DNA of 64,000 nucleotides from contig JBGAON010000003.1 of assembly GCA_044221725.1 (NCBI GenBank), forward strand, positions 192,001 to 256,000, in the 5' to 3' direction. The position numbers and the translations under genes are program-made. Shown here one piece after another: positions 176 through 51,222 of this stretch. Positions within the stretch are counted from its first letter, which is position 1, and each line of letters begins with the position of its first letter. A model generated the notes under the pieces. The model saw nothing but the letters and a program-made list of their open reading frames with translations, searched no databases and had not been told where the DNA came from. Origin of the DNA: Elusimicrobiota bacterium (lineage in GTDB: Bacteria > Elusimicrobiota > Elusimicrobia > F11).

Positions 176-676
176 ATGGCTGATACACAAGAACCAACGC
201 TCCAACAGCCCGAACTTACCCGACGCTCCTTCCTTTTGTGGGGATGGGGCGCTTTTCTCGCATTCCTTGCTTCGTCGGCCGGATCTGTTCTCCGCTTTTT
301 CTTGCCAAACGTTCTCTACGAACCATCCCAAAAATTCCGCGCCGGCAAGGTTGTGGATTATCCTCTTGGCGTAACGATCGACAAAGCGCACCGCGTCTGG
401 ATTATTCGCAACGACCAAGGTTTGTACGCGATGTGGGCGCGTTGCACGCACCTTGGTTGCACACCGAACTGGTTTCCCGCTGAATCTCGCTTTCGTTGCC
501 CGTGTCACGGCTCCAACTTTTCTGCCGCCGGAGATGTGATCGCCGGTCCGGCACCAAAACCTCTTTGGCGTGTGCAAGTCACACAAACCCCGCAGGGTGA
601 ACTCGTCGTCGATAAAGCCATCATGGAGAATCGTCCGGGCGTGCGGGAAAAACCACCGTTCTTCATTAATGTATAG
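176..676 (+). CDS. Rieske 2Fe-2S subunit of a Rieske/cytochrome b complex
   Basis: Tat motif LTRRSFL plus TM helix; Rieske boxes CTHLGC and CPCHGS; GPAP motif. Confidence 0.95.
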
Positions 677-687
677 TACGTCCCTTC

Positions 688-2328
688 ATGTTCCAAAAAC
701 TCGATCCTAAGAAGCTTTTCGAAGATTTAACAAACACACAGGTCTGGCGCTCCATGTTCCGCGGTGGAACATGGAAAGACACGTCGCGTGACCGCGCGCA
801 ACACATTCTTGGCAATGTTTGGTTGCACTTGCATCCAGCCCGCATCCGCCGTCGCGGAGTAAAGTTTACCTACACCTGGGGTTTGGGCGGCCTTTCTTTC
901 TTCCTGTTTCTTGTTCTCACCGTGACCGGCATTGTGCTTATGTTCTATTACCGTCCAACGCCGGACTTGGCCTACCGCGATATGAAAGATTTGGAATTTG
1001 TCGTTTCGATGGGAAAATTCATGCGCAACATGCACCGCTGGTCTGCGCACACGATGGTTCTGTTTGTGATCTTGCACATGGTTCGCGTGTTTCTCACGGG
1101 GGCGTACAAAACCCCGCGCGAATTCAACTGGGGTGTCGGCGTCGTTCTTCTCGTCATCACTCTTTTCCTGTCGTTTACCGGTTATCTACTCCCATGGGAT
1201 CAATTGGCCATTTGGGCCGTTACGGTTGGAACCAACATGGCGAGCGCCTCGCCGTTTCTTGGAGCGGAAGGCCCGTTTTCAGCGTTATTGGGCGTCGGTC
1301 TTAAGAACGACGCGCGTTTCGGCCTTCTCGGTGGAACGGCGGTCGGATCCGCGACACTGGTTCGGTTTTACGTTTTGCATTGCATCGCGGTCCCGGTCAT
1401 TGCTGGTATTTTTATGATTGTGCATTTCTGGCGTATTCGCAAAGATGGATTTTCCGCAGCCCCAATCGACAACGAACCACCAACGCAAAAGATTGAAGTG
1501 TGGCCAAACCTCGTAGTTCGCGAATATCTCGGTGCAATTCTCATGTTGATCTTCTTGGTTGGTTGGTCGTTTCTTCAGAACGCACCCCTCGAAGGCATCG
1601 CGGATCCGAACGTGACACCGAATCCTTCCAAGGCGCCGTGGTATTTCTTGGGTCTTCAAGAGTTGCTCGTCTATTTTGATCCGTGGATTGCCGGCGTGGT
1701 TTTGCCGACGATCATTATGATTGGCCTTATGGCAATTCCCTATTTGGATCCGGATCCAAACCGTGGTGTCGGTTTTTATTCGTTCAAAGAACGCCCGTTT
1801 GCAAACATTATTTTCTTGGCTGGCATTTTCGCGTGGTTCGCGTTGATTGTCATCGGCACGTTCATGCGAGGACCGAACTGGCAGTGGTACTGGCCTTGGG
1901 AAAGTTGGCTTATTCACAAGGCGCCACCGCCGCCAACATCCATTATGCCGCTGGCTCTTGGCGCGCCGCTTATTGCAATTTATTTTGCGGTGGGAATGGT
2001 GCTACCGTTATTAATTAAGTGCGAAATTAACGTGAAGTCCTCTGTGAAAAAGATTTTTGGCGGTGCTTTTCTGTTGGCGCTCATTGTTGGGGTGTTACCG
2101 AGCTTTACGTTCGTGCAGGGCGCATGGGTTGGGTTTGGTGTAGGTCTTTATTTAATCATGGGCGTCATTTTGCCGACGCACTATTTGAAGGGCATCAGCA
2201 AGATCCGTTACACCGTGTGCATGGCGTTGTTGTTGATGATGATCGGCGTTTTCTTGAAGGTGACGCTGCGCCTTGGATTTAACATCAAATATATTGTTTC
2301 CATCCCACAAGTTAGCTTGAACGTCTAA
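688..2328 (+). CDS. Cytochrome b (b6-like domain fused to subunit-IV-like domain plus extra C-terminal helices)
   Basis: Heme-ligand His pairs in MHRWSAH..ILHM and [26 protein letters not shown] at the PEWY position; follows the Rieske gene. Confidence 0.93.
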
Positions 2329-2329
2329 C

Positions 2330-3640
2330 GTGAAAATAGAAAATAAATTTCTCCAAAAATTGTTCATGCTGCGCTACTTATTTTTGTGGGGCAACGTTAT
2401 TCTCTTGTTGCTTTTTGTGGCCGTGCTCGTTCGAGACAATTGCCGCGGTTGGAAAGACTATCAAGTCGAATTCAAAAAGCGTGAAGTAGCGAAAGCGCAA
2501 GAAAAAGTTAATAACGCGCCGACCTCCGAGGCGAAAGAAGTGGCCCTCCAAGAACTGAAACAAGCAAAAAAGATGCCGATTGAGGTGCGCCAGATTTGGA
2601 CTCAGGAGATGAACGCCGTTGACCGTTGCATAACCTGTCACTTGGGCTACGATCCACTTCAAAACAGTTCTCTCACCACCGAGTACAAAGAGCATCCTTA
2701 CAGTGCCACCGGTGCTTCACCGGGTTTTGATATTCATAAAGCACACAATCTCGAAAAATTTGGTTGCGTTGTTTGCCACGGCGGACAAGGTCTGGCGACC
2801 GAAGTGAAAGCCGCGCACGGCGAAGTCGAACATTGGGAAAAGCCGCTCTTGAAAGGGGTTTTGCTCGAAGCGTCGTGCGTCAAATGCCACGATAACCATG
2901 CTGATTTGAAGATCAATGGAGAGATTTATACCGCCGACATCGTTCGCGCAAAAAAATTGTTCCGCGATAACGGTTGTATCGGTTGCCATCAAGTGGGTGG
3001 TGAAGGTGGTGTGATTTCCGTCGATTTGAAAGAAGAAACGTCGAACAAGCCGCTCAGTCGAATCGATTTTTCCCACACCGGATTGGATAAAGAACAGCGG
3101 ACGCTCGCGAATTGGATTAAGGTGCACCTCGTGAAAGATCCCGTGGATGTGACGCCGGGCGATCCAACAGCATCGTTCAACACCGAACCGATTGCGCCAT
3201 CCGGCATGCCGCCCTATTTGATGTCTGAAAAAGACGCCGATGCGCTGACCGCATGGGTGTTGAGCTTGAACCGACAAGGTATTCCGCCTCAATTCTTGAC
3301 GTTGCGGCCGCCGGAAGCGGAGCCCAATATTAGTGGTGCCGTGGCGAAGGGTCGCTACGTGTATGACAAGTTTGGTTGCGCCGCATGCCACGGTGCCGAC
3401 GCGCGCGGTGGAATTCGGGATTACAATGCGCAGTACGACGTTACACCGAATCTCCGTCGTGTGGTGGGGACTTACACACGCGAAGAGATCAAATCGAAAA
3501 TTTCGGAAGGTGTTCCGTTTATCGCGAAACACGATCCCAACGGGCCGACCCCGCCGTTTTACATGCCGGCGTGGAAGTCCAAGATCAAGGGCGACGACTT
3601 AGAGAACCTCGTCACTTACTTGCAGAGCATAAAAGAATAA
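2330..3640 (+). CDS. Membrane-anchored pentaheme c-type cytochrome of the bc-type complex
   Basis: N-terminal TM helix; five CxxCH motifs (CITCH, CVVCH, CVKCH, CIGCH, CAACH); GTG start 1 nt after the cytochrome b stop. Confidence 0.92.
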   Translation: MKIENKFLQKLFMLRYLFLWGNVILLLLFVAVLVRDNCRGWKDYQVEFKKREVAKAQEKVNNAPTSEAKEVALQELKQAKKMPIEVRQIWTQEMNAVDRCITCHLGYDPLQNSSLTTEYKEHPYSATGASPGFDIHKAHNLEKFGCVVCHGGQGLATEVKAAHGEVEHWEKPLLKGVLLEASCVKCHDNHADLKINGEIYTADIVRAKKLFRDNGCIGCHQVGGEGGVISVDLKEETSNKPLSRIDFSHTGLDKEQRTLANWIKVHLVKDPVDVTPGDPTASFNTEPIAPSGMPPYLMSEKDADALTAWVLSLNRQGIPPQFLTLRPPEAEPNISGAVAKGRYVYDKFGCAACHGADARGGIRDYNAQYDVTPNLRRVVGTYTREEIKSKISEGVPFIAKHDPNGPTPPFYMPAWKSKIKGDDLENLVTYLQSIKE

Positions 3641-3682
3641 TTAGCCCTAGCTTTGCGTGGAATTTTCGATCAAGATGTAACT

Positions 3683-3760
3683 GGCTATCAGTTATCAGCT
3701 ATCGGCTGTCAGCCAGAAAGAATTTGAATATTGATAGCTGAAAGCTGAGAGCTGACAGCC
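3683..3760. repeat. Inverted pair of heptamer tandem arrays (GCTATCA-like x4 / TGANAGC x4)
   Basis: Left arm GCTATCA GTTATCA GCTATCG GCTGTCA; right arm TGATAGC TGAAAGC TGAGAGC TGACAGC; imperfect long hairpin ending 2 nt before the fixC ATG. Confidence 0.8.
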
Positions 3761-3762
3761 AA

Positions 3763-5133
3763 ATGGCCGACGACAAATTTGACGTAATTGTAGTAGGAGC
3801 CGGACCCGCGGGAACATCCGCGGCGATTACCGCTGCAAAACTGGGATTGAACGTGGTGTTGCTTGAGCGCGGCGAATATCCTGGTTCGAAAAACGTGCAA
3901 GGCGCTGTGCTTTACACGAAAAATCTCGCCGACATCCTTCCTGAATTCTGGAAAGACCCGACCGCACCGCTGGAACGTTACATCACGACCCAAAACGTGA
4001 TGATCGCTTCTGATGATTCCGCAATCCAAGTTGGTTTTCGTTCGGATAAATGGGTTCAAGAGCCGCACAACTGCTACACGATTATTCGTGTGAATTTCGA
4101 CAAGTGGTACGCGAAAAAAGCGGAAGAGGCGGGCGTGCAACTTTTTACGGGTGTCAGAGTTTCGAAAGTCCTTCAAAAAGACAAAAAAGTCATTGGCATT
4201 GAAACGAGCGAAGGAGATCAGCTCTTCGCCGATGTCGTAATCGCCTGCGATGGCGTGAATTCGATGATTGCGCAATCGATCGGGCTGATCGATGAACTGC
4301 GTTCCGATGAAGTGGCGCTCGGCGTGAAAGAAGTGCTCGCGCTTCCAGAGGGCCGAATTCAAGATCGTTTCGCTCTTGAGAAGGGGGAGGGAGCGACGTT
4401 TGAAATTTTTGGTGGCGTGACGCGTGGAATGCTTGGTTACGCATTTCTTTATACAAATAAAGAGTCCATTTCTTTTGGTGTCGGTTGCAAGTTGTCGCAT
4501 TTCCAGCGAACGAACGCGCGCCCTTATGAATTGCTTGAAGCGGCCAAGAAACATCCCATCATCCGCCGATATCTTGCCGACGCCAAGCCGATCGAATATT
4601 CTGCGCACTTGATTCCGGAAGGAGGCTATTATTCTTTGCCGCCGCTTTACACCGACGGCTTTATGATTGCCGGCGATGCTGCGCAAATGATCAATCCATC
4701 GCACCGTGAAGGTTCAAATCTCGCAATGACGGCTGGCATGCTGGCCGCCCAAACGGCCGCCGAAGCAAAAAAGAAAGGGGATTTTTCGAAAGCGACGCTG
4801 GTTGAATATCAAAGGAAGCTCGAAGCATCTTTTGTGATTCCCGATATGGAAGACCATAAAGATTTGGAACACAAAATTGAGCGCAACATGGATTTGATCA
4901 CCGTTTATCCGGAGCTGGCCGCTCGTGCGCTGTACGAATACTTTACCGTTGACGGGCGTACCAAGAAGGATGTTCAAAAAAGTATTTTCCGCCGCATCCT
5001 CAAGACGCGATCCGTGAAAAATATTGTTCGTGACGTTTGGGGAATGGTGCACGCCGATGAGAAGAAGCCAACCGTGTGGGGTCTCATCAAAGAACTTTGG
5101 AAAATGAAAAGTGCATTTAAGAGGTTTGGATAA
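3763..5133 (+). CDS. fixC: FixC-family FAD-dependent ETF:quinone oxidoreductase
   Basis: VVGAGPAG FAD motif; LLERGEYPGSKN; ACDGVNS; EYSAHLIPEGG; AGDAA; adjacent to fixX. Confidence 0.9.
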   Translation: MADDKFDVIVVGAGPAGTSAAITAAKLGLNVVLLERGEYPGSKNVQGAVLYTKNLADILPEFWKDPTAPLERYITTQNVMIASDDSAIQVGFRSDKWVQEPHNCYTIIRVNFDKWYAKKAEEAGVQLFTGVRVSKVLQKDKKVIGIETSEGDQLFADVVIACDGVNSMIAQSIGLIDELRSDEVALGVKEVLALPEGRIQDRFALEKGEGATFEIFGGVTRGMLGYAFLYTNKESISFGVGCKLSHFQRTNARPYELLEAAKKHPIIRRYLADAKPIEYSAHLIPEGGYYSLPPLYTDGFMIAGDAAQMINPSHREGSNLAMTAGMLAAQTAAEAKKKGDFSKATLVEYQRKLEASFVIPDMEDHKDLEHKIERNMDLITVYPELAARALYEYFTVDGRTKKDVQKSIFRRILKTRSVKNIVRDVWGMVHADEKKPTVWGLIKELWKMKSAFKRFG

Positions 5134-5456
5134 TGGACGAAAAAAAAACAGAGAAGATTGACGTCAATATTGACGACAAGCTCGGCATGTTGACGTACAA
5201 AGCCGACCACAGTTTTGCTCACATTAAGATCAAAGATGCATCCGCGAATAGTCCGTGCGTGACAACCTGCAAAGAAAAACCGTGCACGCAAGTTTGCCCC
5301 GCGCGCGTTTACACGTGGGAAGAAGCACAGAAGAAAATTCTCGTCGCCTACGAGAACTGCATTGAGTGCGGTGCTTGCCGCATGTTGTGCCCGTTCGACA
5401 ATATTGCATGCGAATGGCCGCGCGGCGGCTTTGGCGTGCAGTACAAATTGGGCTGA
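5133..5456 (+). CDS. fixX: FixX-family ferredoxin
   Basis: C..C..KPC..VCPA.VY, CIECGACRMLC and C-terminal WPRGGFGVQYKLG; start overlaps the fixC stop by 1 nt. Confidence 0.9.
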   Translation: MDEKKTEKIDVNIDDKLGMLTYKADHSFAHIKIKDASANSPCVTTCKEKPCTQVCPARVYTWEEAQKKILVAYENCIECGACRMLCPFDNIACEWPRGGFGVQYKLG

Positions 5457-5460
5457 CCCG

Positions 5461-5521
5461 TTTACAAAAGATTTACATTCCATTAATCCGATCTTAATCG
5501 CGCATCCATAGAATTCGCGCT
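5461..5521 (+). promoter_or_regulatory. Pho-box-like 11-bp-periodic array plus -10 element; probable leaderless promoter of the 1963-aa gene
   Basis: TTTACA 5461, TTTACA 5472, TTAATC 5483, TTAATC 5494; TAGAAT at 5509-5514; ATG at 5522 after a 7-nt spacer; no Shine-Dalgarno. Confidence 0.7.
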
Positions 5522-8500
5522 ATGGAAACGCCCCGTTTCGTTCGCGTAGTTGCTGGTTCGCTTTCGATTGTTTATCTCGCCACGAATTGCTTGTTCGCCG
5601 GTCGCGTGGAAGGGAACATCTGGCAGGAAAGGCGACCGTCGTCGGCCCCGAATGTTTTCATCCAGCGTCCCCGTATTCCTGCGGTACACACGGATCTTGG
5701 CTTGCGACGTGCGAGCATGATGGCATTGGCCCGCTTCGGCACCATTCGCAACGTTCAAAAATCCACTCATCCTTCTCCAAAAAATCCCGTGGTGCTCCAT
5801 GTTCAAGACGTTCACATGAACAGCGAAGCACAAAGAAATATTTCCGGAGCTCTTCAACAGCTGATTGACAATGAAAAGGTACGGCTGCTGGCATTGGAAG
5901 GGGCTTTTCATTCAATCGATTTAACGCCGTTTCGTAAATTTCCCGATCGAACGAGTGTTTTCAACGTTGCGGATTACATGTTGCAAGAAGGAAAAATTTC
6001 CGGTGCCATTCATGCCGCGGTCTTCGCTGAAAAAACAGTCTCGACGATTGGTATCGACGATTTTGGCCATTACAATGCAAATGTGGAAGCCGTACAAAAA
6101 TCGTTCGCGGCATCGAAAGAATTAAAACCGGAGATCCTGCGCTACGTGAACGATCTCGAAAAGAAAAAACAACAGACATTTGATTCTTCGCTGCTTCGGT
6201 TCGATAACACCGTGCAACAATATCGTAACCAGTCGCTTTCGTTGGGAGATTACGCTTCGGCGCTTTCTCGGATCGTGGATGCATCGTCGAGCGTGAAAAC
6301 ATTTCTCAAAGCACGTCGTCTCGAGTCAATCATTGATTTCTCTGCGGTCGCGCGCGCGCGTGCCGAGGCGCGTGAGAAAAATATTTCCCCGATCCATTTC
6401 CCATCGTTGATGCTTTACGATGATTACTTGCGAGCGGCAAAGTCAATTGATTCGGATGCGTTGGCGAACGAGTTGGAACACATGGAAAGCGCGGCGTTTA
6501 AAAAGCTTTCGCGAACACCGGCGGAGAGAGAGTTGATTGCGCAATCGCGCCGACTTTATCTGCTTGAGAAGCTTGTGAATTTTTCTCTGACCAAAAATGA
6601 GTGGGACGAATACGAGAACGAGCATCGTTCCGCGTGCGCTATACCTCACGAAAGGATTCAGCCGTTTGAGGCGTTTTATATGGAAGCGGAATATCGTGAC
6701 GCCGCGATGGCGATGAACTTTTTAAATCAAATCAATGAGATAAATGATGCAGACCAAAGCACCTTTGTGTTGGTCACCGGCGGCTTCCATTCTTCCGGCA
6801 TCGACAAACGCCTCGGCGACGCAGGCTGTACCGTGGTGACATTTATTCCAAAGATCACGAAGATCGACACCGTAAACGGTTCCGCGTATCTCAGTGTGTT
6901 TGCGCAAGAAAAATTTTCGCTCGATAAGCTGTTCGAAGGAGAAAAAATTTTCCTTTCGCCTTCGCCGATGTCGAAAAGCGCATTCGGATTGTTCGCCGTG
7001 CTTGTGGCGAGCGTTGCGCTGCTCACCAACGCAGTCTCCAGCGGGATTGCCGCTTCGTGGCTTCAATCAACACTGGCAATGAACGATCTTTCAATTGCAA
7101 AAGCAGGGGCGAACGCGGTGAACATTGTCTTTGGACTTTATGGCGCGCACCTTGGCATCACGTTCTTGAGCGGAGCCGCAGGGGCGATTCGGCCAGAGCT
7201 TTCTATTGCCCGCCAGAAACCGGATTTCGGTCGCTGGTTCCCTTCTTCAATTCGGGAATCACTCGAGCACTTCATGCCGTGGTTCGTGCCGCAGCACATT
7301 GCGATTCGGCGGTGGCCGCTGTGGATTGGTTACGCAATGATTGTCACGTGTGGCGTTGCGTTTCCGGTTCTTTTTTCTGAGTTTGTCTCTGTCGTTCCCT
7401 CCGAAGTGTGGATGTGGACGGGCGGTGTTGTTGCGCACGAATTTTATAACCGGCTGGCAAAAGTTATGGGTTGGCCCATGTTGACCCGTGTGGTTCTTGC
7501 CCAAGATTTTTTAACGGCCGAACAGGAACAGAGCTTGGCTCGCGAAATGGATTCAATATTCGATTCGATGTTGCCGGTGCTGCTGGATAATGAAAAAGCC
7601 CAAGATTTGTTGCTTCGTCTTCTCAAGTCCGATTTGCACAGAAGAATAAATCTGAATCTTGTCATCCAGGCGGATGTGCAGGCGCACAAAAAGGGAAAAT
7701 TTTGGATTCGGCCTGGTTTGACTGCCAAAAACAACGTTCGAATTGCAGACCTCATTCAAGTCCTAACTCGCACTCCCAGTTCCGAGCTTTATGCGCAGAT
7801 CAAAGATTGGCATGAAAAAAACAACGATCTTTCTTTGAATTTGAGGAATTTGACGTTGAGATTTTTGCACGGATTTCGAGAGCTTTCTTATTCTGAGAAA
7901 CAACAACGACAGATTTCGAATTGGATAAGAACCTATGAAGATACAAGGAACATGCTGGTACGACCTTATGTGGGCATCGTCACCGGTCTTGCAAAAAAAT
8001 TTACAAGACAAGGACTGTCAATCGATGAATTGGAATCTGAGGGCTACAGTGGATTGCTTGCGGCGGCCGAACATTATCGCGTTGGGTTTGGACGTTTCAG
8101 CACTTTTGCGACTCCATCAGTGAGAAGAAGCATGCGCGTCGCTGTGTTGCGGAAGGCAAAAGAGAACGCGCCCGAGCGCACGCTGACGGAGTCGATCGCT
8201 GGCGAAGAAATTGATTACGATTCATCGAAATACGAGGAATTATTGAAGCAGGTGTATCAATTGCCGCGGCGAGATCAATTTGTGTTGTCTCAATATTACG
8301 GATTGAATGGCCTGGACCCGGAAAAGCTTGAACAAGTGGGGCGTCGCCTGGGTTTGTCGGTGGAACGAATTCGCCAAATAAGAAACCGCGCGCTGGATAG
8401 GCTTCGAGAGCGCCTGACGTCGCCGACAGGCGAACTTCGGGAGGAAGAAGAGGGTGCGCCTATCTCGAAAAAGCTGAACAGACAGAACGTTATTGATATG

Positions 8501-11413
8501 TTGACCAACGTTTCTCCATCCGTGTTAATGTCTCATGAGGCCGATGTTTTAAGAATGATTTTCGGTATCAATGGTCGTGTGCCGCTTACAATTCAAGAAA
8601 TCTCGGAAGCCACAAAATGGTCCGAATGGCAAATTGAAAGAATCCGCGATGCGGCGCTCGATAAATTGATGAAGGCCCGTGTTCATGAGCACGCATTCGG
8701 AAGGGGGATTCTTCCTTTTCTCGCGCGTGAGTCAAGATTTCTGCGCTTGAAGGGGCATACGCGTTCCGCCTCTTTAATAGAAAACGTTGTTTTTCCTTCC
8801 CTTGAAGAGCTTGTCTTTAGTTTTGGAGCGGTTTACGTGTTCGGCGCGTACGGACTCATTATCGCACGCGTGATTCATGTGGCGTTGCATTTGCTAGGGC
8901 CGCCATTATCGGATCGTGGCGCTCAAAATGTTTTTCGAAAGCTTTTTATTCCTGTTCTTATTTCTGTTGCGCCGTTTTCCTTCCTTGGTGTTCCGAGTCT
9001 TTCTTCTTCGGTGTTTTCGGTAAGTGCGGCTTTTGATGTTGCTGCGCAGTTTTTCGAATGGCACGTTGTCTTTAATTCGCTCGTCGATTTGACGGGCGCG
9101 ACCGTCGCCAAAGCCAATTTGCCAACGAACGACGACATCGTGGGGCCGTATCGCATCCTTCGCGAAATCCGGCCGCAAAGCGCCCGAGCCGTGGCGGTGT
9201 ACGAAGCCGTCCACGTTGAGACAAACGCCAAAGTCATTCTTAAAACGTATCTTGATTTTCCAACGAATTCTCAGGAGTTTTTAAATGCGCATTCCCGTGA
9301 GGTTCGCAACCTCTGGCTGCTCACGCAAAAAGGGATCAATTTCGTTCCCAAATTAATTGATCAAGGCGTCGATTATCACGGCGCGGTTCCGCGATATTGG
9401 TTTGCGATGGAATTGGTCGAAGGGAAAACGCTCGACAAATGGCTCGCCGCCAATGCGAGCTACCACGATCGCTTGCAGGTGTTTCGAAACTTGTTGGTGG
9501 TCGTTGACCGTTTTCACCGAGAGGGATATGTTCACCTGGATCTTACGGCCACCAACATCATGGTGCTGCCAGACAATCAAGTGATGCTTATCGACGTCGA
9601 ATTGATGCAGTCGCTTGAGGTATCCCTTCAACAATTTGTGCTCGGTGCGCCCGCTTATGCATCGCCGGAAACACGGGCGGGTTTTCGGGGAGTTTATACG
9701 CGATCGGCGGATGTTTTTTCTCTCGGTGTAATACTGTTTTTAATGAGCACGGGCATGTCAAAATTGGAACGCCATCCTGCGAACGACGGGGTTTTCTCTT
9801 CGTTGGTAACTCGATATCCAGATGCGGATATATATGAATGGGTTCGCGCCGAGATCGCCAAGCAATCCCCTTGGGCAGTGTACGGCGATGTGATCTCAAA
9901 GGCACTCCGAGCCAACCCGCATTCGCGGTTCACATCCGCTCGGAATTTTCTGAAGGCCATGGACGACGCAGCGGTGCACCACGCTTTGGATGTTTCGAAA
10001 GCGATGCAAGCCATTGACCGCGCTTTTTACCTTGAAGACACAAAAGTTGTCGACGTCACAACCGCTCCTAATGATCTGATGATTTACACCGTTGAGCCGG
10101 AATGGAAAACGGGTCTTGCTTTGTTAACCCAGGAACTATCGTCGCCGCATCCTCGATTCCAACTGGTCATGCGGAATTCGAGATTAATAGGAATTGTTCC
10201 CACCGAAACGCGGCGGGATTCGAGTTTTCGGTATTTGTCTTTGGCCGATTATCAGTACGATCCTCCGGATTATTCCATTGGGCTTTCGAATAAGTGGAAA
10301 GAAATTTTGAAACAAAGCAGCGAGGACGAAGCACGCCTCGAGGAATATTTGCGATCACGCGGGCGTACCGATCGCGAGATCCAAGGCGGTCGTCTCAATG
10401 GATTCGGTGATCATTGTGTTGAACCTGCCGTGCTTGTTGATCTGGGCACGTCGATCACGCTCACATCCATTCGGTCACCTCTCGAACACCCACAGCCGCT
10501 GTTGGCGAGTCGTCGACAAGCCGAAAACTTTGTGATTCAGGTTTTGCCCACCGTCTCTTCTCCGATCGGCAAACAGAATGGCGGATACGAAAAAGCGGCT
10601 GAGGATCGGAAATACTATTTCAATGTTACGAATGTCGCGGAGACATACGATAAGAAAAACGGGCCTGGTTCGTGGAAGGGAAAGAAAAGAATTCGAGTCG
10701 TTGGCTGCGGAACCGGCTGTGACGCGGTCGCCGTGTTGGTGGGTGCAATAAATTATCACGGACATTCGATTGCTGACTTAAGGGACTATATTCGTATCAA
10801 CGAAAGAGTGCCCGAATGGGCACCGATTATCGATGCCAGTGACATAAACCCGGTGGCGGTTGAAAACACGAAGCTCACATTTGACCAACTTGGGATTTCA
10901 GCGGTCGTCTACGCGCATGTGACGGACAACTTGCTGTCTTCGATTCCAACCACGGAGCTCGCCGACGTAATAATTTGGAACATGCCATCTTATCCAGCCG
11001 ATAAATTAGCGGATCAATTGGCCGATTATGCTGATGGCGGCGCCAACGGCAAGATTGCGCTCGACATTTTAACGGAAAGGCTATCGGCGAACTTGGCCGA
11101 TGGCGGCGTGGGAATTTTTGGGAACTACCAAACGCCGGTTATTTTAGACGGAACGCAACGCGATCTTGTTCGATACAAGTTGGTTAACAGCGCAGGGGCT
11201 CGTGAGCGAGGCATGACCGTTCAAGGGGGAGGATTGTATGGCAGCCGCGAGGTCTACGTAACGCATGTGCCGTTGACCCAATCACCGGTGACGCGAATGG
11301 ATGTTGGTCTCAAGTTTCGTTTGGAACATAATCAACAAAACAATGAGCTGCCGAAAATCCCGGTCCGTCACGAGGACTGGATCGAGCGTCGCGCCATTTT
11401 GGGCGGTGCTTAG
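5522..11413 (+). CDS. 1963-aa multidomain membrane protein: N-terminal conserved domain + sigma-70-like + Ser/Thr kinase-like + SAM methyltransferase-like domains
   Basis: Signal-like N-terminus; QDVH..LEGA..RD..MA..GGFH domain; sigma region 2 (DELESEGYSGLL..FSTFA) and two region-4 HTHs; kinase motifs VILK, HLDLTATN, YASPE, DVFSLG; MTase motifs VGCGTG, SDINPVAV, IIWNMPSY; several hydrophobic blocks. Confidence 0.85.
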   Translation: METPRFVRVVAGSLSIVYLATNCLFAGRVEGNIWQERRPSSAPNVFIQRPRIPAVHTDLGLRRASMMALARFGTIRNVQKSTHPSPKNPVVLHVQDVHMNSEAQRNISGALQQLIDNEKVRLLALEGAFHSIDLTPFRKFPDRTSVFNVADYMLQEGKISGAIHAAVFAEKTVSTIGIDDFGHYNANVEAVQKSFAASKELKPEILRYVNDLEKKKQQTFDSSLLRFDNTVQQYRNQSLSLGDYASALSRIVDASSSVKTFLKARRLESIIDFSAVARARAEAREKNISPIHFPSLMLYDDYLRAAKSIDSDALANELEHMESAAFKKLSRTPAERELIAQSRRLYLLEKLVNFSLTKNEWDEYENEHRSACAIPHERIQPFEAFYMEAEYRDAAMAMNFLNQINEINDADQSTFVLVTGGFHSSGIDKRLGDAGCTVVTFIPKITKIDTVNGSAYLSVFAQEKFSLDKLFEGEKIFLSPSPMSKSAFGLFAVLVASVALLTNAVSSGIAASWLQSTLAMNDLSIAKAGANAVNIVFGLYGAHLGITFLSGAAGAIRPELSIARQKPDFGRWFPSSIRESLEHFMPWFVPQHIAIRRWPLWIGYAMIVTCGVAFPVLFSEFVSVVPSEVWMWTGGVVAHEFYNRLAKVMGWPMLTRVVLAQDFLTAEQEQSLAREMDSIFDSMLPVLLDNEKAQDLLLRLLKSDLHRRINLNLVIQADVQAHKKGKFWIRPGLTAKNNVRIADLIQVLTRTPSSELYAQIKDWHEKNNDLSLNLRNLTLRFLHGFRELSYSEKQQRQISNWIRTYEDTRNMLVRPYVGIVTGLAKKFTRQGLSIDELESEGYSGLLAAAEHYRVGFGRFSTFATPSVRRSMRVAVLRKAKENAPERTLTESIAGEEIDYDSSKYEELLKQVYQLPRRDQFVLSQYYGLNGLDPEKLEQVGRRLGLSVERIRQIRNRALDRLRERLTSPTGELREEEEGAPISKKLNRQNVIDMLTNVSPSVLMSHEADVLRMIFGINGRVPLTIQEISEATKWSEWQIERIRDAALDKLMKARVHEHAFGRGILPFLARESRFLRLKGHTRSASLIENVVFPSLEELVFSFGAVYVFGAYGLIIARVIHVALHLLGPPLSDRGAQNVFRKLFIPVLISVAPFSFLGVPSLSSSVFSVSAAFDVAAQFFEWHVVFNSLVDLTGATVAKANLPTNDDIVGPYRILREIRPQSARAVAVYEAVHVETNAKVILKTYLDFPTNSQEFLNAHSREVRNLWLLTQKGINFVPKLIDQGVDYHGAVPRYWFAMELVEGKTLDKWLAANASYHDRLQVFRNLLVVVDRFHREGYVHLDLTATNIMVLPDNQVMLIDVELMQSLEVSLQQFVLGAPAYASPETRAGFRGVYTRSADVFSLGVILFLMSTGMSKLERHPANDGVFSSLVTRYPDADIYEWVRAEIAKQSPWAVYGDVISKALRANPHSRFTSARNFLKAMDDAAVHHALDVSKAMQAIDRAFYLEDTKVVDVTTAPNDLMIYTVEPEWKTGLALLTQELSSPHPRFQLVMRNSRLIGIVPTETRRDSSFRYLSLADYQYDPPDYSIGLSNKWKEILKQSSEDEARLEEYLRSRGRTDREIQGGRLNGFGDHCVEPAVLVDLGTSITLTSIRSPLEHPQPLLASRRQAENFVIQVLPTVSSPIGKQNGGYEKAAEDRKYYFNVTNVAETYDKKNGPGSWKGKKRIRVVGCGTGCDAVAVLVGAINYHGHSIADLRDYIRINERVPEWAPIIDASDINPVAVENTKLTFDQLGISAVVYAHVTDNLLSSIPTTELADVIIWNMPSYPADKLADQLADYADGGANGKIALDILTERLSANLADGGVGIFGNYQTPVILDGTQRDLVRYKLVNSAGARERGMTVQGGGLYGSREVYVTHVPLTQSPVTRMDVGLKFRLEHNQQNNELPKIPVRHEDWIERRAILGGA

Positions 11414-12453: not shown

Positions 12454-13848
12454 TTAAGCGGCTGCCGATTCTACATCAGGAAGGAAATCAATGAGCGAAT
12501 CAATTTTATCCATGTGACCGAGCGTTTTTCGAATCGAGAGTGGGAAAGGGTCTGTGCTGTTGTTCCCGAGGGCCGCCAGATTGCGCGGATTCCATGTGCC
12601 TTGAGTTGTCTTAACAAGCACCATCGGCCGCGCGATGTGTGCGAGGTTCGGCATTATCACAACGCCACGCTCGCCGGTGTTCAATTGAACGATCGTGCCC
12701 GGCGCATACAACCCATGGAACGGTAGCAGCAGTTTGACGAGAAGCTGAGGGAACTGCGTACGAGCGCGGTGGAGCGTTGTGCGGAGTATTCGATGCATCG
12801 GTACCGGCCGATGATAATGATGATCGGACACGGTTGCCCAGCTAACAAAGTCGCAAAGTCCAACGATTTGAGAAAAGATGTGCGGCTTTAGGGATCCCGG
12901 TAGCGCCGGATATCCCTGGCCGTCCGCGCCCACGTGATGTTCCAGCGCCACTCGCACAACGCTCATCGGTAATCCCTGTACACCAGCAAGAAAAGAAGCG
13001 CCATCGCGCGCGTGCAACCGAACAAATTCAATGTCGCCTTCTTTCAATTTGTGGCCGCTTGAAAATTCGGATGGCAACAGAAAACGGCCCGTATCGTGCA
13101 GCAACGCCGACAACGCCAGAATTTTCGTCGACGTCAAATCACACCCCAGTTGATGGGCAAGATAAACGCACTGAATTGTCGTATGCACCGCGTGTTGGAC
13201 CGAAAGGTTCGTCCGTGGAAAGGTTGCGAGCATGAGAGAAAAATCCATCGGACGCTGATGAACCGCGTCGACAAGTCGATCGAGCGGCAGCGCCAAATCG
13301 GCCAATGACACGGCTTGTTCCTCAATAATCTTTGTCAGTGTTTTCTCGGCCAGGACGAGCCACTCGTTGTAAATGGTCACCGAACGGTCAAAATGCGCGC
13401 GAACTGTTTTCGATTTGTCGTCGTGTTTCCTTTCTTCTTCAAGCGTGGCCTTAATATGTTCGCTTTGAAAGCCTCGGGACGGTCCGGATTTCTCCATGAG
13501 ATGTTGGCTCAGGTCCACCACCTCTTTCGTGGTAACGTTCGGCAAGAACGCCACTTTCGCAATCTTTCGTTCTTCAAAGCCGCGGAGCAAATCGTACAGC
13601 GAAAGACTTTCTTCAATGAAAAGCATGTCATCAATCACAAACAAACCGTCCACATGGTGCAGCAGAAAATCAAAACGTATGGATAGGACGTCTTGCAAAG
13701 CTTGCAAAAATTTCTGGGCTGCTTCCGTGGTGCTCGGATGGCTCGGGGAATAAAGCCTTGCGTTCTTAAACGTTGCATACCACGCACGGAGTGCCGCGCT
13801 GTATTTTTCGCGGTCGCGCTGGCGTGTGTTGGGCATCATTTCACTCAT
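12454..13848 (-). CDS. HD-GYP domain protein
   Basis: LLHDTG, HARDGA, EHH..DGQGYP; C-terminal YAPGTIVQLNTGERGVV..N....RP subdomain. Confidence 0.85.
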   Translation of the reverse strand: MSEMMPNTRQRDREKYSAALRAWYATFKNARLYSPSHPSTTEAAQKFLQALQDVLSIRFDFLLHHVDGLFVIDDMLFIEESLSLYDLLRGFEERKIAKVAFLPNVTTKEVVDLSQHLMEKSGPSRGFQSEHIKATLEEERKHDDKSKTVRAHFDRSVTIYNEWLVLAEKTLTKIIEEQAVSLADLALPLDRLVDAVHQRPMDFSLMLATFPRTNLSVQHAVHTTIQCVYLAHQLGCDLTSTKILALSALLHDTGRFLLPSEFSSGHKLKEGDIEFVRLHARDGASFLAGVQGLPMSVVRVALEHHVGADGQGYPALPGSLKPHIFSQIVGLCDFVSWATVSDHHYHRPVPMHRILRTTLHRARTQFPQLLVKLLLPFHGLYAPGTIVQLNTGERGVVIMPNLAHIARPMVLVKTTQGTWNPRNLAALGNNSTDPFPLSIRKTLGHMDKIDSLIDFLPDVESAAA

Positions 13849-15455
13849 GCGGCCCGCGCCGCGTCGCGATATTTTGTCTGGGACAACACTTGCACGGCCA
13901 CCTGTTTTAGATCAGCATCCTGAGACGATCGAGCGAAATTGAGAAGTGCGCGTTGCGATTCGTCACTCCCTATGCGGCACAACGCGCGCACCATCTCCGA
14001 TCGCACGATCTTTTGTGGGTGCGTTAAGAGGGGCGCGGATGCGGGCAAAAGCTGCGACGCACGAATGTCTCCAAGAATCATCACCAAATTGCGTGTTAGA
14101 AAAGCGGACGCGTGCGCAAGCGATTCGACGAGCACATCGGCGCCGTCTTCACGGGCGACGTTTGTCAGGAGCACGCAGAGTTTCTTGCGCATTCCCCGAT
14201 CCTGTTCGCCGTCCAGCGCTTTGACAAGACCCGGCAAGCAAGCTTTTCCTAGCGAACGGAAATAATTCGACATGTCCGTGAAGGCCGACGATTCGAGGGT
14301 GCATGAGCGCAGCGGAAATAGCACAAGGCCGATATTCTGCAAAGAGGTTAATTGTTGGCGCAGCGATGCGATCAGCGATACGGCGGGATTTTCAGTGTCG
14401 GAAGATGTGCAGGCGGTCCACGCCTCAATCGCGAGCTTGAGTGATTTCTCTTGAATCGGAACGGAGTTGCGTTCGGACATGCAGCGCAACAAAAGCGAAA
14501 GTCCGAAAATAAAGTTGCTTCCGCCTTCCTGAAGCAGCGCCGCGGCCAAGTCGAGATCTTGAGCCGCCGAGGACATCAAGCCAATGGACCGAAATTCGTG
14601 ATGTTGGTTCACTTCCTCTGTCGAAAATGCACACAAACGCGACTCCCAGTCAACTTTGCGCGTGGCCGCCGAGAATACCTTCTGAACAACGAACCGGTGC
14701 CCGAGAGCGGATTCTTTTCGGAGATTTTGCGTCGGTTCTTGATCGAGTTGTTCGCGCAGATGATTTTTTAACGACACCGGAATGGGGAAAAATTTCGAGA
14801 ATCGCTCCCATGGAAAATAACCTTCGCGGGCCGCGTTTATGAAATCGTGTAGGAATGTCTTGTGTTGGACCGGGAGTGACTTCGCCTTTTCGATTGCATG
14901 AGCGTAGAAATCAGCAAGGTTGTTCACCGTGTTCGCGTTCAGTTGCTCAACGTAACCGAAACCGTTTTGCGATTTTGGAACCAGTACCGGTGCGAAACGC
15001 TTCGTGATCGCTTCGTCGGACAGTTTTAATAGGTACGAATTTGCTGTCATCGGCACCAAGCTCACCGGTTTTGGCTCACCATCGTCCAGCAGCGTAACGA
15101 GCTTTTCGTTTTTCGAATCCGAACTATCTTTGCCGGTGAGAATGTGCAGCAATTGAAAGATATTGCGCGATTGCAGCGGAGCCTGAAATTGAATGCTGCG
15201 GTACCCGAGATTTCTCAGCAAGCCCGCGAACGAAACGGTGAGTTCCGGAAATCCAACGGGTTCACCTTGGAACAGCAGCGACCGGTTTGTAACAACAAGC
15301 TGGATGGGTTGGGGAGTTTTTTGAGTGTCTTGAAATCTTTTGACGAGGTTCTGAAGGATTTCTTCAAAAGCTTTGTTGTCTTGGTTGTAAATGTAAAACG
15401 ATCGAAATGCGCCGGCCAGCGTTGAGACGAAGCGGTTGATTGCCTGCGGATCCAT
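13845..15455 (-). CDS. HEAT-repeat-containing protein
   Basis: C-terminal HEAT-like repeats (RNLVMILGDI, HPQKIVRSEMVRALCRIG); ATG at 15455 preferred over the upstream start at 15473; ATGA overlap with the HD-GYP gene. Confidence 0.75.
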   Translation of the reverse strand: MDPQAINRFVSTLAGAFRSFYIYNQDNKAFEEILQNLVKRFQDTQKTPQPIQLVVTNRSLLFQGEPVGFPELTVSFAGLLRNLGYRSIQFQAPLQSRNIFQLLHILTGKDSSDSKNEKLVTLLDDGEPKPVSLVPMTANSYLLKLSDEAITKRFAPVLVPKSQNGFGYVEQLNANTVNNLADFYAHAIEKAKSLPVQHKTFLHDFINAAREGYFPWERFSKFFPIPVSLKNHLREQLDQEPTQNLRKESALGHRFVVQKVFSAATRKVDWESRLCAFSTEEVNQHHEFRSIGLMSSAAQDLDLAAALLQEGGSNFIFGLSLLLRCMSERNSVPIQEKSLKLAIEAWTACTSSDTENPAVSLIASLRQQLTSLQNIGLVLFPLRSCTLESSAFTDMSNYFRSLGKACLPGLVKALDGEQDRGMRKKLCVLLTNVAREDGADVLVESLAHASAFLTRNLVMILGDIRASQLLPASAPLLTHPQKIVRSEMVRALCRIGSDESQRALLNFARSSQDADLKQVAVQVLSQTKYRDAARAA

Positions 15456-15499
15456 ACATAATTGTAAGGGCACTCCGGTCGCGATGCAAGTTAAAGATC

Positions 15500-50003: not shown

Positions 50004-50007
50004 CGCT

Positions 50008-50334
50008 ATGAAAAAAATTACACTCGCATTTGCTGCTCTTGCCTTAAATTCGCTGGTTTTTGCGGAGCCCCATCCGTATCCGGTTCCTTTCACTCCGAGT
50101 CGAAACGCGGCCCACACCGCCATCACGTTCACCGATCTCGCGGGGGATGGTCGTATCCGGATTTACACCATCGACGGAAAATTGGTGAATGAGATCGGTA
50201 TCGCCCAGGGGCAACTCACCGTGGATTGGCCCGCCACAAATTCCAAAGGGGAAAAGGTGGCCACCGGCGTCTACATCTACAACATCGAGACGGGCGGCAG
50301 CTCCACGCAAGGGAAACTCGTCGTTATTCGCTAG
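50008..50334 (+). CDS. Signal peptide plus stand-alone T9SS-like/FlgD-Ig C-terminal domain (108 aa)
   Basis: ATG 50008, 4 nt after the giant gene stop; MKKITLAF..VFA then HPYPVPF..IRIYTIDGKLV..W..TNSKGEKVATGVYIY..GKLVVIR, paralogous to the giant's C-terminus. Confidence 0.88.
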   Translation: MKKITLAFAALALNSLVFAEPHPYPVPFTPSRNAAHTAITFTDLAGDGRIRIYTIDGKLVNEIGIAQGQLTVDWPATNSKGEKVATGVYIYNIETGGSSTQGKLVVIR

Positions 50335-50719
50335 GTTGGCTAAGTTTCTTTAAAAGTTGTCCGAATTCCTTTTTGGTCATTCTGTGTTCTGCGATTTTTA
50401 TCATTGCTTCATAAAGCATTCGTTTCGGATCTTCGACATCGATTTCATTTAATTCCAGAAAGACCAGTGCAGCAGCAAGCGCTGTCCTTTTGTTTCCGTC
50501 AAGAAAAGGCTGATTTTGTGCTATGTGAAACGCGTAGGCGGCCGCCATGTCCTGTAGCGAGTCATGTAGAAATACGCCAGTGGACGTGGCTTGCGGAACC
50601 ATCATCGCCGATTCAAGAAGTCCCAGATCACGAATTCCGGCGCTTCCGCCGAAAACCTCGAGCTGTTGTTCGTGAAGATCCAGAATCTCGGCGAGCGTAA
50701 GAAAGAGCGGCTCGTTCAC
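50324..50719 (-). CDS. doc: Doc/Fic-family toxin of a type II TA system
   Basis: FGGSAGIRDLGLLESA; Fic-like motif NQPFLDGNKRTA; ATGA/GTGA-type 4-nt overlap with the antitoxin. Confidence 0.88.
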   Translation of the reverse strand: MNEPLFLTLAEILDLHEQQLEVFGGSAGIRDLGLLESAMMVPQATSTGVFLHDSLQDMAAAYAFHIAQNQPFLDGNKRTALAAALVFLELNEIDVEDPKRMLYEAMIKIAEHRMTKKEFGQLLKKLSQPSE

Positions 50720-50943
50720 TTAGCCAGATCCTCAAATGTTTTGTGATGGCGCTTCATGATTTTTGCCGCGGCCTTTTTGAATTTCTCTTCCCGCTGGGCA
50801 TCCTTAATGGGTGAAACGATGAGATTTTTCCCGTCGGTGCTCAGTTCCAGGGGCGTGTCCATTGATATCTTCAATATATCGAGAATTGGTTTATCAATGA
50901 TAAGCGCTGCGCTGTTGCCATGTGCCGTTAAATGCTTGACCAT
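50716..50943 (-). CDS. AbrB/MazE-family antitoxin (75 aa)
   Basis: MVKHLTAHGNSAALIIDKPIL..LIVSP; SD GGAGG upstream of ATG 50943; upstream of doc. Confidence 0.88.
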   Translation of the reverse strand: MVKHLTAHGNSAALIIDKPILDILKISMDTPLELSTDGKNLIVSPIKDAQREEKFKKAAAKIMKRHHKTFEDLAK

Positions 50944-50974
50944 AAAACCTCCCAAATGAAGTCCTTCGGATGGA

Positions 50975-51012
50975 AGTATATAGGATACACAAAGGATATA
51001 CAATGGATACAC
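50975..51012 (-). promoter_or_regulatory. TA operon sigma-70 promoter overlapped by three direct-repeat operators
   Basis: -35 TTGTAT (51003-50998), 17 nt, -10 TATACT (50980-50975); GGATAYAC repeats at 50983, 50994, 51005 (11-bp period). Confidence 0.75.
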
Positions 51013-51222
51013 CCAGGGAAGGGCGGCTGCTTCGTAATATCGGCGGGAACCTGTAGATGGTCTCAAAAGGACTGGCGCTGCCGGCGAATCTCCAGACTTT
51101 CTTGCGGTTAGACGAGCTGCCGAGATTCAATTAAGGTATTTTGAAGCGGCCGAGATATCGTTCGAATGATCCTCAGTGCTGCATAATAAGCTGTCTTTTC
51201 AGGCTATTTTTGGTGGCCTTTT

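Follow-up and report, generated by a model that had tools for sequence, protein, structure and literature searches.

The polyprotein gene and its locus

The 64,000-nucleotide stretch analysed here (the window; positions 192,001 to 256,000 of contig JBGAON010000003.1 from an Elusimicrobiota bacterium) carries on its forward strand, at 5522..11413, a polyprotein gene whose single open frame encodes 1963 amino acids (aa), and in which a signal-like N-terminus and a conserved head are followed by membrane modules, a sigma-70 cassette, a protein kinase and a probable methyltransferase (MTase). The gene is supported by Pfam matches, by comparison of its flanking genes and by read contigs, and it is real. 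It belongs to a family in which a constant chassis, consisting of a signal-like N-terminus, a TIKI-fold head, an alanine-ended tail and a promoter, carries interchangeable cargos. The original prediction, made from the DNA letters and their open reading frames (ORFs), had placed sigma, kinase and further cargo in one frame behind a signal-like N-terminus and transmembrane (TM) blocks, and this has held: frame 5522-11413 is open for 1963 codons (5.9 kb without a stop), and Kyte-Doolittle analysis places hydrophobic blocks at aa 9, 487, (535), 607, 1097 and 1141, including a TM helix behind the head (aa 487-505; 6980..7036 on the + strand; Kyte-Doolittle 2.17). Overlooked at that stage were the promoter, the fold of the head, the Ala motif at the C-terminus and the resemblance of the modules to CPBP.

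It had also been suggested that reads might reveal a misassembly joining separate genes, which was examined in 4 of the 22 listed runs. In the probable source run a single 23.6-kb contig spans 4800-12400 with zero differences, and runs from three other studies hold short near-identical pieces that cover 28/30, 23/30 and 21/30 bins, with no joints listed, some of which cross the junctions between head and TM helix, module 1 and sigma, module 2 and kinase, and linker and MTase, as well as the gene end. With a gene-spanning contig, no joints and near-identical pieces in three other studies, misassembly is not supported. An RNA run (X7) likewise contains pieces of the gene, its contigs being uninformative on transcription. 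The wider alternative, in which the chain is misassembled or has accumulated neutrally from gene pieces in decay, could draw on the degenerate sigma and kinase motifs and on the exact architecture being a singleton among ~8,000 scored candidates, but besides the read evidence it has to contend with 5.9 kb free of stops, with a cassette-module grammar repeated in other genomes, and with purifying selection on the modules and cassettes of relatives; it is largely refuted, and very improbable.

The gene and its promoter sit between convergent fixX-like ferredoxin and squalene/phytoene synthase genes, with only 4 bp between the stop at 11413 and the latter, convergent gene. In 5/5 kin (two congeners and three other genera) the gene is missing and the flanking genes abut, from an overlap to a 13 bp gap, so that promoter and ORF arrived as one 5.96-kb unit, and did so recently. 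No flanking repeat was seen by eye at the insertion, and no immunity gene came with the 5.96-kb unit. The original prediction had also seen the sigma-coding part as AT-rich, which is partly right: the stretch that it named has a GC content of 0.489 against 0.499 for the ORF, the AT-rich segment lies just upstream (7487-7936, 0.427), and the head is low as well (0.474), all as raw values. A second variable insert lies beside the polyprotein gene, where an HD-domain and HEAT-repeat gene pair (12454-15473, - strand), flanked by the squalene synthase gene on one side and a gene for a small membrane protein on the other, is absent at the same position in L137, L139 and L140.

A family built on a constant chassis

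The head, comprising the N-terminal ~400 residues, was found in 26 ORFs of this 2.82-Mb genome, with lengths of 775-8,862 aa and little common sequence beyond the head. A Pfam cargo (E<=1e-4) was detected in 12/25 of the other paralogs and none in 13/25, and these cargos comprise DHQ synthase, HD, adenylate kinase, 2-hydroxyacid dehydrogenase, hexokinase, GH18, phosphorylase, glycogen synthase, PRK/uridine kinase, PP2C with FHA, WD40, beta-CASP and GGDEF domains. The proposed collection of paralogs sharing the N-domain has thus yielded 26 with differing cargos, and a single fixed housekeeping architecture in all homologs, which would have spoken for a different kind of protein, is not what is seen, cargos varying across paralogs and relatives alike. 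Among external proteins (51/140 scanned), deaminase, receiver, radical SAM, NUDIX, SNF2 helicase, S8 peptidase, dockerin, glycosyltransferase and small methyltransferase cargos were found, and three have sigma domains.

The head profile matches 9,639 clusters (50% identity) of a public library and 62/201 genomes of the phylum, often with at least 8 copies each. All 78 head loci kept in GTDB genomes (from the best 80 of 220) are from Elusimicrobiota, while look-alikes of the head in the Atlas include Omnitrophota clusters. In one family belonging to the same class, the head family was not found in any of 58/58 genomes, and is therefore dispensable for housekeeping there.

At the N-terminus (5522..5630, + strand), a signal-peptide-like segment is followed by the family motif [NSG][LFIVM]WxER, which is present in 104/150 Met-starting family proteins as opposed to 0/1778 other ORFs; the signal-peptide call was made from hydropathy and this motif. 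At the other end, family comparison shows a C-terminal amphipathic tail (11366..11410, +) with Ala as the last residue, as in 21/26 paralogs versus 8.8% of 1778 other ORFs, and in 79/140 external proteins, fragments counted. A copy of the tmRNA tag was considered for this tail and rejected, since it differs from the tag of the genome's tmRNA despite both ending in Ala.

Upstream of the gene lies the four-repeat element TTAC-N7-TTAC-N6-TTAA-N7-TTAA (5462..5497, +), an exact match that is common to family genes. Searched at -30..170 bp from the called start, the element is exact in 14/26 family genes and, allowing <=2 mismatches, present in 22/26 as compared with 5/1778 others; its spacing was read off the 1963-aa gene and then refitted, so that these counts are not blind. 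A -10-like hexamer, TAGAAT (5509..5514, +), stands 7 nt ahead of the ATG, which suggests that the transcript is leaderless.

Several observations elsewhere in the genome touch on this family. A transposase-like ORF (by eye) lies between two tandem family genes at G000:C2:188164-189129, and two family upstream regions have a common stretch ahead of the promoter, a possible trace of gene movement. Just beyond the window, an 8,369-aa protein (L027:301 to L028:10107; G000:C5:256705-281814) has an exact promoter, a similar signal and an Ala tail, with no head match and no Pfam match, and is read as a second chassis type. An 18,006-aa ORF (L023-L026; G000:C2:219210-273230), none of whose four pieces has a Pfam match at E<=1e-4, has four family genes in tandem in its neighbourhood, together with genes for pilus/secretion ATPases.

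TIKI/EreA/ChaN-fold head

The conserved head (5765..6976, +) has a TIKI/EreA/ChaN fold with a ~200-residue helical insert, and its residues D96, H98, E126, R392 and H423 are invariant in 26/26 paralogs. PF04187 (the ChaN family) matches 15/26 paralogs at E<=1, the head of the 1963-aa protein itself scores 19.2 bits against a curated cut-off of 27.7, and the head profile found nothing relevant among PDB sequences. The model of the head (pLDDT 86) has a parallel beta-sheet core flanked by helices, and in VIA-align against 48,161 chains it matched ChaN (Z 8.9, rmsd 6.0, 181 aligned), EreC (Z 8.1, rmsd 3.7, 162 aligned), HopBA1 and BcR135 (both Z 7.7) and PMT (Z 6.4). Foldseek returned EreA-type chains as its top four, weakly (E>=0.017). 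Each single Z is modest, and the fold is assigned because five superfamily members agree within the top six structural matches (ChaN, EreC, HopBA1 and two BcR135-type chains, Z 7.6-8.9).

The catalytic set of RRSP has been described as E3900, H3902, E3930, R4001 and H4030 (PMC6254334). The head residues match this set in order and spacing, with Asp instead of Glu as the first acid, the equivalence being drawn from sequence order and spacing rather than from residue-level superposition. Because of the structural matches and these invariant residues, the head is read as a hydrolase and is probably an active member of the TIKI superfamily, as predicted from model and sequence. With that superfamily (ChaN 2g5g, EreC 6xcq, BcR135 2rad, HopBA1 5t09, PMT C2 2ebf and RRSP) it shares the fold and (PMC6254334) the acid-x-His, Glu, Arg, His constellation, including the 30 residues from first acid to Glu that separate E3900 and E3930 in RRSP. 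Peculiar to the head are Asp for the first Glu, the ~200-residue helical insert, the score below the Pfam cut-off, and its role as a constant N-terminal chassis.

CPBP/Rce1-like membrane modules

Two membrane modules were recognised in the 1963-aa protein, which lie on both sides of the sigma cassette, the second also in front of the kinase. Module 1 (7247..7486, +) is short, degenerate and CPBP-like at the level of motifs (FxxxH592, H639xxxN643), and a leave-one-out module profile finds it at aa 586-653 as a weak second match (E 2.6). Module 2 (8783..9097, +) is found by the same kind of profile at E 5e-5 and has E1095, E1096, H1123, H1181 and N1185; of its EExxxR motif the two Glu are present and Ser stands at the Arg position. 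FxxxH is the motif of the water-bridging His of CPBP proteases, which H1123 of module 2 fits. CPBP proteases have been described as having an active site made of the first Glu, a His and HxxxN (PMC11980579).

Across the family, a profile from 12 seeds found 106 modules, with a length of 110-130 residues, in 73/262 sequences, and in these the first Glu is kept in 98/106 (92%), the two His in 106/106 (100%) and 105/106 (99%), and the Asn/Asp in 104/106 (98%), the conservation of HxxxN being partly circular because the profile was seeded on HxxxN matches. With looser coverage, 134 modules were found in 88/254 family sequences, a set with truncated frames and maybe duplicates. PF02517 (Rce1-like) is the sole Pfam family to match more than one of 37 family modules, reaching E<=1 in 10/37 (best 2.7e-6). 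It exceeds its cut-off in P0107, with 34.7 bits, and also within long frames of relatives that bear the head; its best scores in this genome, 19.8 and 18.8 bits, both lie within one paralog, and neither module 1 nor module 2 of the 1963-aa protein is matched. The module profile found nothing relevant among PDB sequences, searching the Atlas with the module produced no usable match, and structure searches with the module model (pLDDT 75.6) returned generic helical bundles at Z<7. A short-module profile did not grow past its three seeds, and one built without the 1963-aa protein, from two L143 short modules, missed module 1. Charge bias places the module flanks on the cytoplasmic side in 93/97 modules, and dN/dS between module copies is 0.13-0.37.

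Taken as divergent CPBP/Rce1-like modules, newly recognised here, the membrane blocks may be more than plain anchors. They share with CPBP or type II CAAX proteases such as MmRce1 and the myxosortase MrtX the Glu, the His and the HxxxN in a small helical membrane domain (PMC11980579), together with the PF02517 matches among family modules. They differ in being embedded in a longer chain in up to 4-5 copies, in being reduced to the core, in having mostly lost the second Glu and the Arg, and in that their action would be in cis. Alternatively, the proteins may be uncut, membrane-anchored multi-enzyme scaffolds or coats, as for the Omnitrophota giants, whose modules would serve as non-catalytic anchors and recombination joints. 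This is the published reading of long proteins with a signal peptide and TM segments (10.64898/2026.06.07.730766; 10.1101/2023.11.21.568195), and it would agree with the incomplete EExxxR motif, with the report of a non-catalytic CPBP protein (PMC13692083), and with module copies in one protein that are closer to each other (up to 93% aa identity) than the cassettes between them (39-40%). It is nonetheless improbable, as no positions of the module are better conserved than its four catalytic-type residues, and a sigma domain held by a membrane module on either side within a 2-kaa chain would presumably have poor access to RNA polymerase and DNA.

Sigma cassette

The sigma cassette (7487..8419, +), delimited by Pfam and homologs, consists of a region 1.2-like start, a non-conserved region of ~125 aa, region 2, a short linker and region 4. 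Sigma70_r2 (aa 812-878, nt 7955-8155, E 8e-9) and Sigma70_r4 (aa 913-963, nt 8258-8410, E 3e-13) are both above their Pfam cut-offs, and TIGR02937 scores 67 bits against a cut-off of 42.9. Region 2 had been called correctly from the sequence, with the sigma module in fact beginning earlier, at aa ~664 (region 1.2-like). Of the two tandem region-4 helix-turn-helices (HTHs) also claimed, the first stands, whereas the second (aa ~1003-1049; 8528..8668, +) is degenerate and stays below the cut-off (17.8 bits, E 0.0024, cut-off 24.1); the first L142 cassette likewise has an extra region 4.

The best PDB matches of the cassette are RpoS, SigA and RpoD. Group 1/2 sigma factors typically have a Trp-Trp melting pair in region 2.3. 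The cassette has TPS for TWW in region 2.3 and ELESEG for DLIQEG in region 2.2, so that the aromatic melting residues are lost, and with a gap of 35 residues between regions 2 and 4 it has no region 3. Because of these replacements, this copy may be better at binding core and -35 DNA than at melting promoters. Compared with RpoD and RpoS, the cassette shares the region 1.2-like start, region 2 and a region 4 with ERIRQI, as opposed to its lack of regions 1.1 and 3, its novel non-conserved region, its TPS for TWW, its extra region 4 and its placement within a membrane polyprotein.

Five homologs that match the cassette along its length (E 1e-14 to 1e-18) are carried by L142 and L143, of which L142 (2,469 aa) is arranged as head, three module-sigma units, a fourth module and tail, and L143 has two module-flanked sigma cassettes. 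All of these cassettes include the insert and begin 20-30 residues past HxxxN, and one copy passes Pfam for region 1.2; the L143 copies are closer to canonical in regions 1.2 and 2 (L142:4195-11604 and L143:4714-12048, both on the - strand). The cassette type was found in 3/401 genomes, the same three that built the profile, with five candidates scored per genome, and other sigma cargos are found in P0022, P0083, P0016 and P0117. A homolog search with the sigma region returned the 1963-aa protein alone, a weak negative given ~8,000 scored candidates and length limits. An RpoD-like, region-3-less sigma cassette that recurs between modules is newly recognised here.

These cassettes evolve far faster than RpoD and form long branches, on which the grouping of the six cassettes (83/80) is not firm. 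Among L142 cassettes dN/dS is 0.31-0.50, with dS near saturation, which indicates purifying selection. Module copies in one protein are 48-93% identical in aa as compared with 39-40% for the cassettes between them, as is expected if modules double as recombination joints. The non-conserved region of the cassette found no match among 24 RpoD-like sequences (best E 0.024), and a single cassette aligned to an RpoD-like sequence over region 1.2 and the start of the non-conserved region (E 2.5e-7); judged by sequence, the cassette is likely to derive from RpoD.

Kinase and methyltransferase cargo

Downstream of module 2 lies an atypical, non-RD Hanks-type kinase (9143..9990, +), in which Pkinase matches aa 1225-1473 (nt 9194-9940, E 3e-19, above the Pfam cut-off). 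Both its presence and its atypical character had been noted correctly: it has no Gly-rich loop, reads HLDLTATN in the catalytic loop and has DVE at the DFG position. Hanks-type kinases are marked by a catalytic Lys, the alphaC Glu, a catalytic Asp and Asn, a metal-binding Asp and APE. K1241, E1260, D1340, N1345, D1358, SPE and D1397 are kept here, and VILK, REV, HLDLTATN, DVE, ASPE and DVFSLG align with the genome's own kinase. Related kinase cargos are present in L144 and L145, the latter retaining the Gly loop.

The kinase is followed by an unassigned ~170-aa domain and a probable class I SAM methyltransferase of HemK/MTS-like type (10076..11221, +; GCGTG at 10703, DIN at 10841, NMPSY at 10979). 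The stretch from aa 1519 to 1868 is 25% identical to paralog L020, the MTase part matches L145 at E 1.5e-9, and GxGxG, DIN and WNMP are kept in 3/3 aligned homologs (the 1963-aa protein and two homologous cargos). The earlier call of a class I SAM MTase with NMPSY is therefore probable by its motifs, and profile searches did not confirm it: the region has no Pfam match, a three-row profile against the PDB gave methyltransferases at E 0.5-1.2, behind an unrelated endonuclease (E 0.42), and a homolog search for the linker and MTase found nothing among ~8,000 scored candidates under length limits, again a weak negative. Kinase and methyltransferase cargos occur separately in L144, L145 and L020.

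Where the cargo may act

It is proposed, tentatively and as the leading one of three readings, that the chain is a polyprotein cut at its modules, whose cargo acts in the cytoplasm of another cell. The four-repeat promoter would induce the genes of the family together. The signal at the N-terminus and the head would route the chain out of the cell, and the chain would end in a membrane with the module flanks toward a cytoplasm. There the modules (or the head) would cut it, freeing a sigma fragment without region 3 and a kinase-methyltransferase fragment. Action is thought most likely in the cytoplasm of a host or prey cell. The sigma fragment would there occupy the RNA polymerase core, more likely as a competitor or promoter-redirecting factor than in ordinary initiation, while proteins of the host would be modified by the kinase and the methyltransferase.

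Action in another cell is preferred because of members without a helix behind the head, cargo redundancy and fast cargo turnover. Between head and first module, a hydrophobic segment is absent in 26/87 proteins, borderline in 17/87 and present in 44/87; L142 has none by inspection, and 2/138 Ala-ended proteins, one with a PRK/uridine-kinase domain, have none anywhere past the head. In members lacking the post-head helix, Sec export by the producer would put sigma factors, as well as enzymes that depend on ATP, beyond the cytoplasm. Cargos that duplicate stand-alone genes of the same genome comprise DHQ synthase, adenylate kinase, glycogen synthase, phosphorylase and beta-CASP.

These same observations count against an own-cell signalling polyprotein, with a periplasmic sensor or hydrolase as its head, from which sigma, kinase and MTase would be released or activated in the producer's own cytoplasm by regulated intramembrane proteolysis. 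PrsW, a CPBP-clan protease that acts on anti-sigma factors, offers a precedent for such a system, which would need no extra export machine, fits the topology of the 1963-aa protein and the cytoplasmic module flanks, and suits the receiver, GGDEF and PP2C/FHA cargos that exist in the family. The helix-less members, the fast evolution of the cassettes and the redundant metabolic cargos fit it poorly, and unlike a stable regulator the cassette type is confined to 3/401 genomes (the profile-building ones), with the gene absent at this locus in congeners. Own-cell proteolysis is thus ranked as rather unlikely, behind action in another cell and ahead of the uncut scaffold.

A number of points nonetheless weigh against cleavage and delivery into another cell. 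A simple topology, with the signal, the head outside, TM 487-505, even-numbered modules and the cargo inside, would also fit the producer's own inner membrane, topology here being derived from hydropathy and charge, and the 44 proteins with a hydrophobic segment before the first module point the same way. A module is detectable in just 88 of the 254 family sequences, and none lies between kinase and MTase. Of the EExxxR motif the second Glu is found in 14/98 and the Arg in 6-7/98 family modules, no conserved cleavage motif follows HxxxN in family modules, and the module model matched no Rce1 structure. Some cargos are of extracellular types (GH18, dockerin, S8). In this genome (94% complete) no marker of a type III, IV or VI secretion system (T3SS, T4SS, T6SS; FHIPEP, VirB4-type, VipB) was found, and an ATP/ADP translocase was not found either, in a search without a responding control. 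The genome has 11 strong matches to type II secretion system (T2SS)/type IV pilus ATPases and a T2SS-like operon (L181:4597-12540; G000:C5:570596-578542) with GspE, F, pseudopilins, a PilN-like protein, a secretin and a partial four-repeat site. This operon was rejected as the export route, the closest match of its secretin among 200 genomes lying in a genome without the head family. The original prediction of a polymorphic polyprotein, in which the cargo varies behind an exported N-domain common to the family, is supported by the paralogs, the clusters and the absence of the gene from this locus in kin, whereas an effector that reprograms transcription stays conjectural: none of the secretion markers was found, no immunity gene is present, and region 2 of this sigma has lost its aromatic melting residues.

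Relation to known systems

The closest published counterparts are the long multi-enzyme proteins of Omnitrophota with a signal peptide and TM segments, including the Archaeovorins, whose C39 or S8 domains have been suggested to cleave them (10.1101/2023.11.21.568195; 10.64898/2026.06.07.730766; PMC10066038; PMC11573180). They share with the present family a long mosaic chain, an N-terminal signal, TM blocks and cytoplasmic-type enzymes (methyltransferases, kinases, glycosyltransferases, WD40, receiver), and clusters resembling the head occur in Omnitrophota. The 1963-aa protein differs from the Archaeovorins in being far below their length of at least 10,000 aa and in having no C39, S8 or SecA-DEAD domain, while other head-bearing frames attain 10,000-11,800 aa; the family further stands apart in having dozens of paralogs per genome on a single chassis. 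The available text of one preprint (10.1101/2023.11.21.568195) has no mention of CAAX, CPBP, Tiki or sigma, and that of the other (10.64898/2026.06.07.730766) none of CAAX, CPBP, polyprotein, sigma or cleav, ChaN appearing in both in unrelated words alone. A TIKI-headed, CPBP-punctuated family or a sigma cargo was not described in the literature covered, which mostly excluded subscription papers and preprint domain catalogues; the catalogues in the supplements of both preprints may list head, module or sigma domains.

Like polymorphic toxin systems (PMC3482391), the family combines a constant trafficking N-terminus with variable downstream domains, as opposed to which it has no adjacent immunity gene, no orphan cassettes, and cargos that lie inside the chain and are for the most part regulators or metabolic enzymes rather than nucleases. 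Like MARTX-type autoprocessing multi-effector toxins (PMC6254334), it has a constant N-terminus, variable cargo and likely internal processing, but by Pfam the 1963-aa protein has neither RTX repeats nor a cysteine protease domain.

At its broadest, the proposal would describe an effector platform of Elusimicrobiota (and Omnitrophota), in which co-regulated polyproteins enter a host or prey cell, insert in its membrane, cut themselves via CPBP modules and release captured enzymes of housekeeping type and sigma factors, which is regarded as a long shot. If true, dozens of polyproteins per genome would take over host metabolism and transcription, and, in the manner of phages, one bacterium would be delivering a sigma factor to another. 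Whether the mosaic proteins of Elusimicrobiota and Omnitrophota are cut, and where their cytoplasmic enzymes with an export signal act, is an open problem, for which a 2-kaa member is small enough for cloning and a 110-130-residue module makes the polyprotein question testable in E. coli. The repeated module-flanked sigma cassettes indicate transcription as a target, one not discussed in the available portions of the Omnitrophota papers cited above, and the grammar of head, module, cargo, Ala tail and promoter extends to thousands of unannotated proteins.

Other genes in the window

Upstream of the polyprotein gene, a set of genes for a Rieske protein, cytochrome b and multiheme cytochrome c, with fixC- and fixX-like genes behind them (176-5456, +), is read as a bc-type complex linked to an ETF-quinone oxidoreductase. 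Further downstream, at 23703-50003 (+), lies the gene for an 8,766-aa secreted FG-GAP/fibronectin-III protein with a FlgD-Ig-like tail end, which is repeated in the ORF at 50005-50334. A PorV-like/TPR gene (51287-53266) comes next. These are T9SS-like parts outside Bacteroidota, and a weak four-repeat site (3 mismatches) is present upstream of both large genes. Between the giant and the PorV-like gene, two short genes (50324-51066, -) resemble, by eye, what is presumably a Doc/Fic toxin and AbrB-type antitoxin pair.

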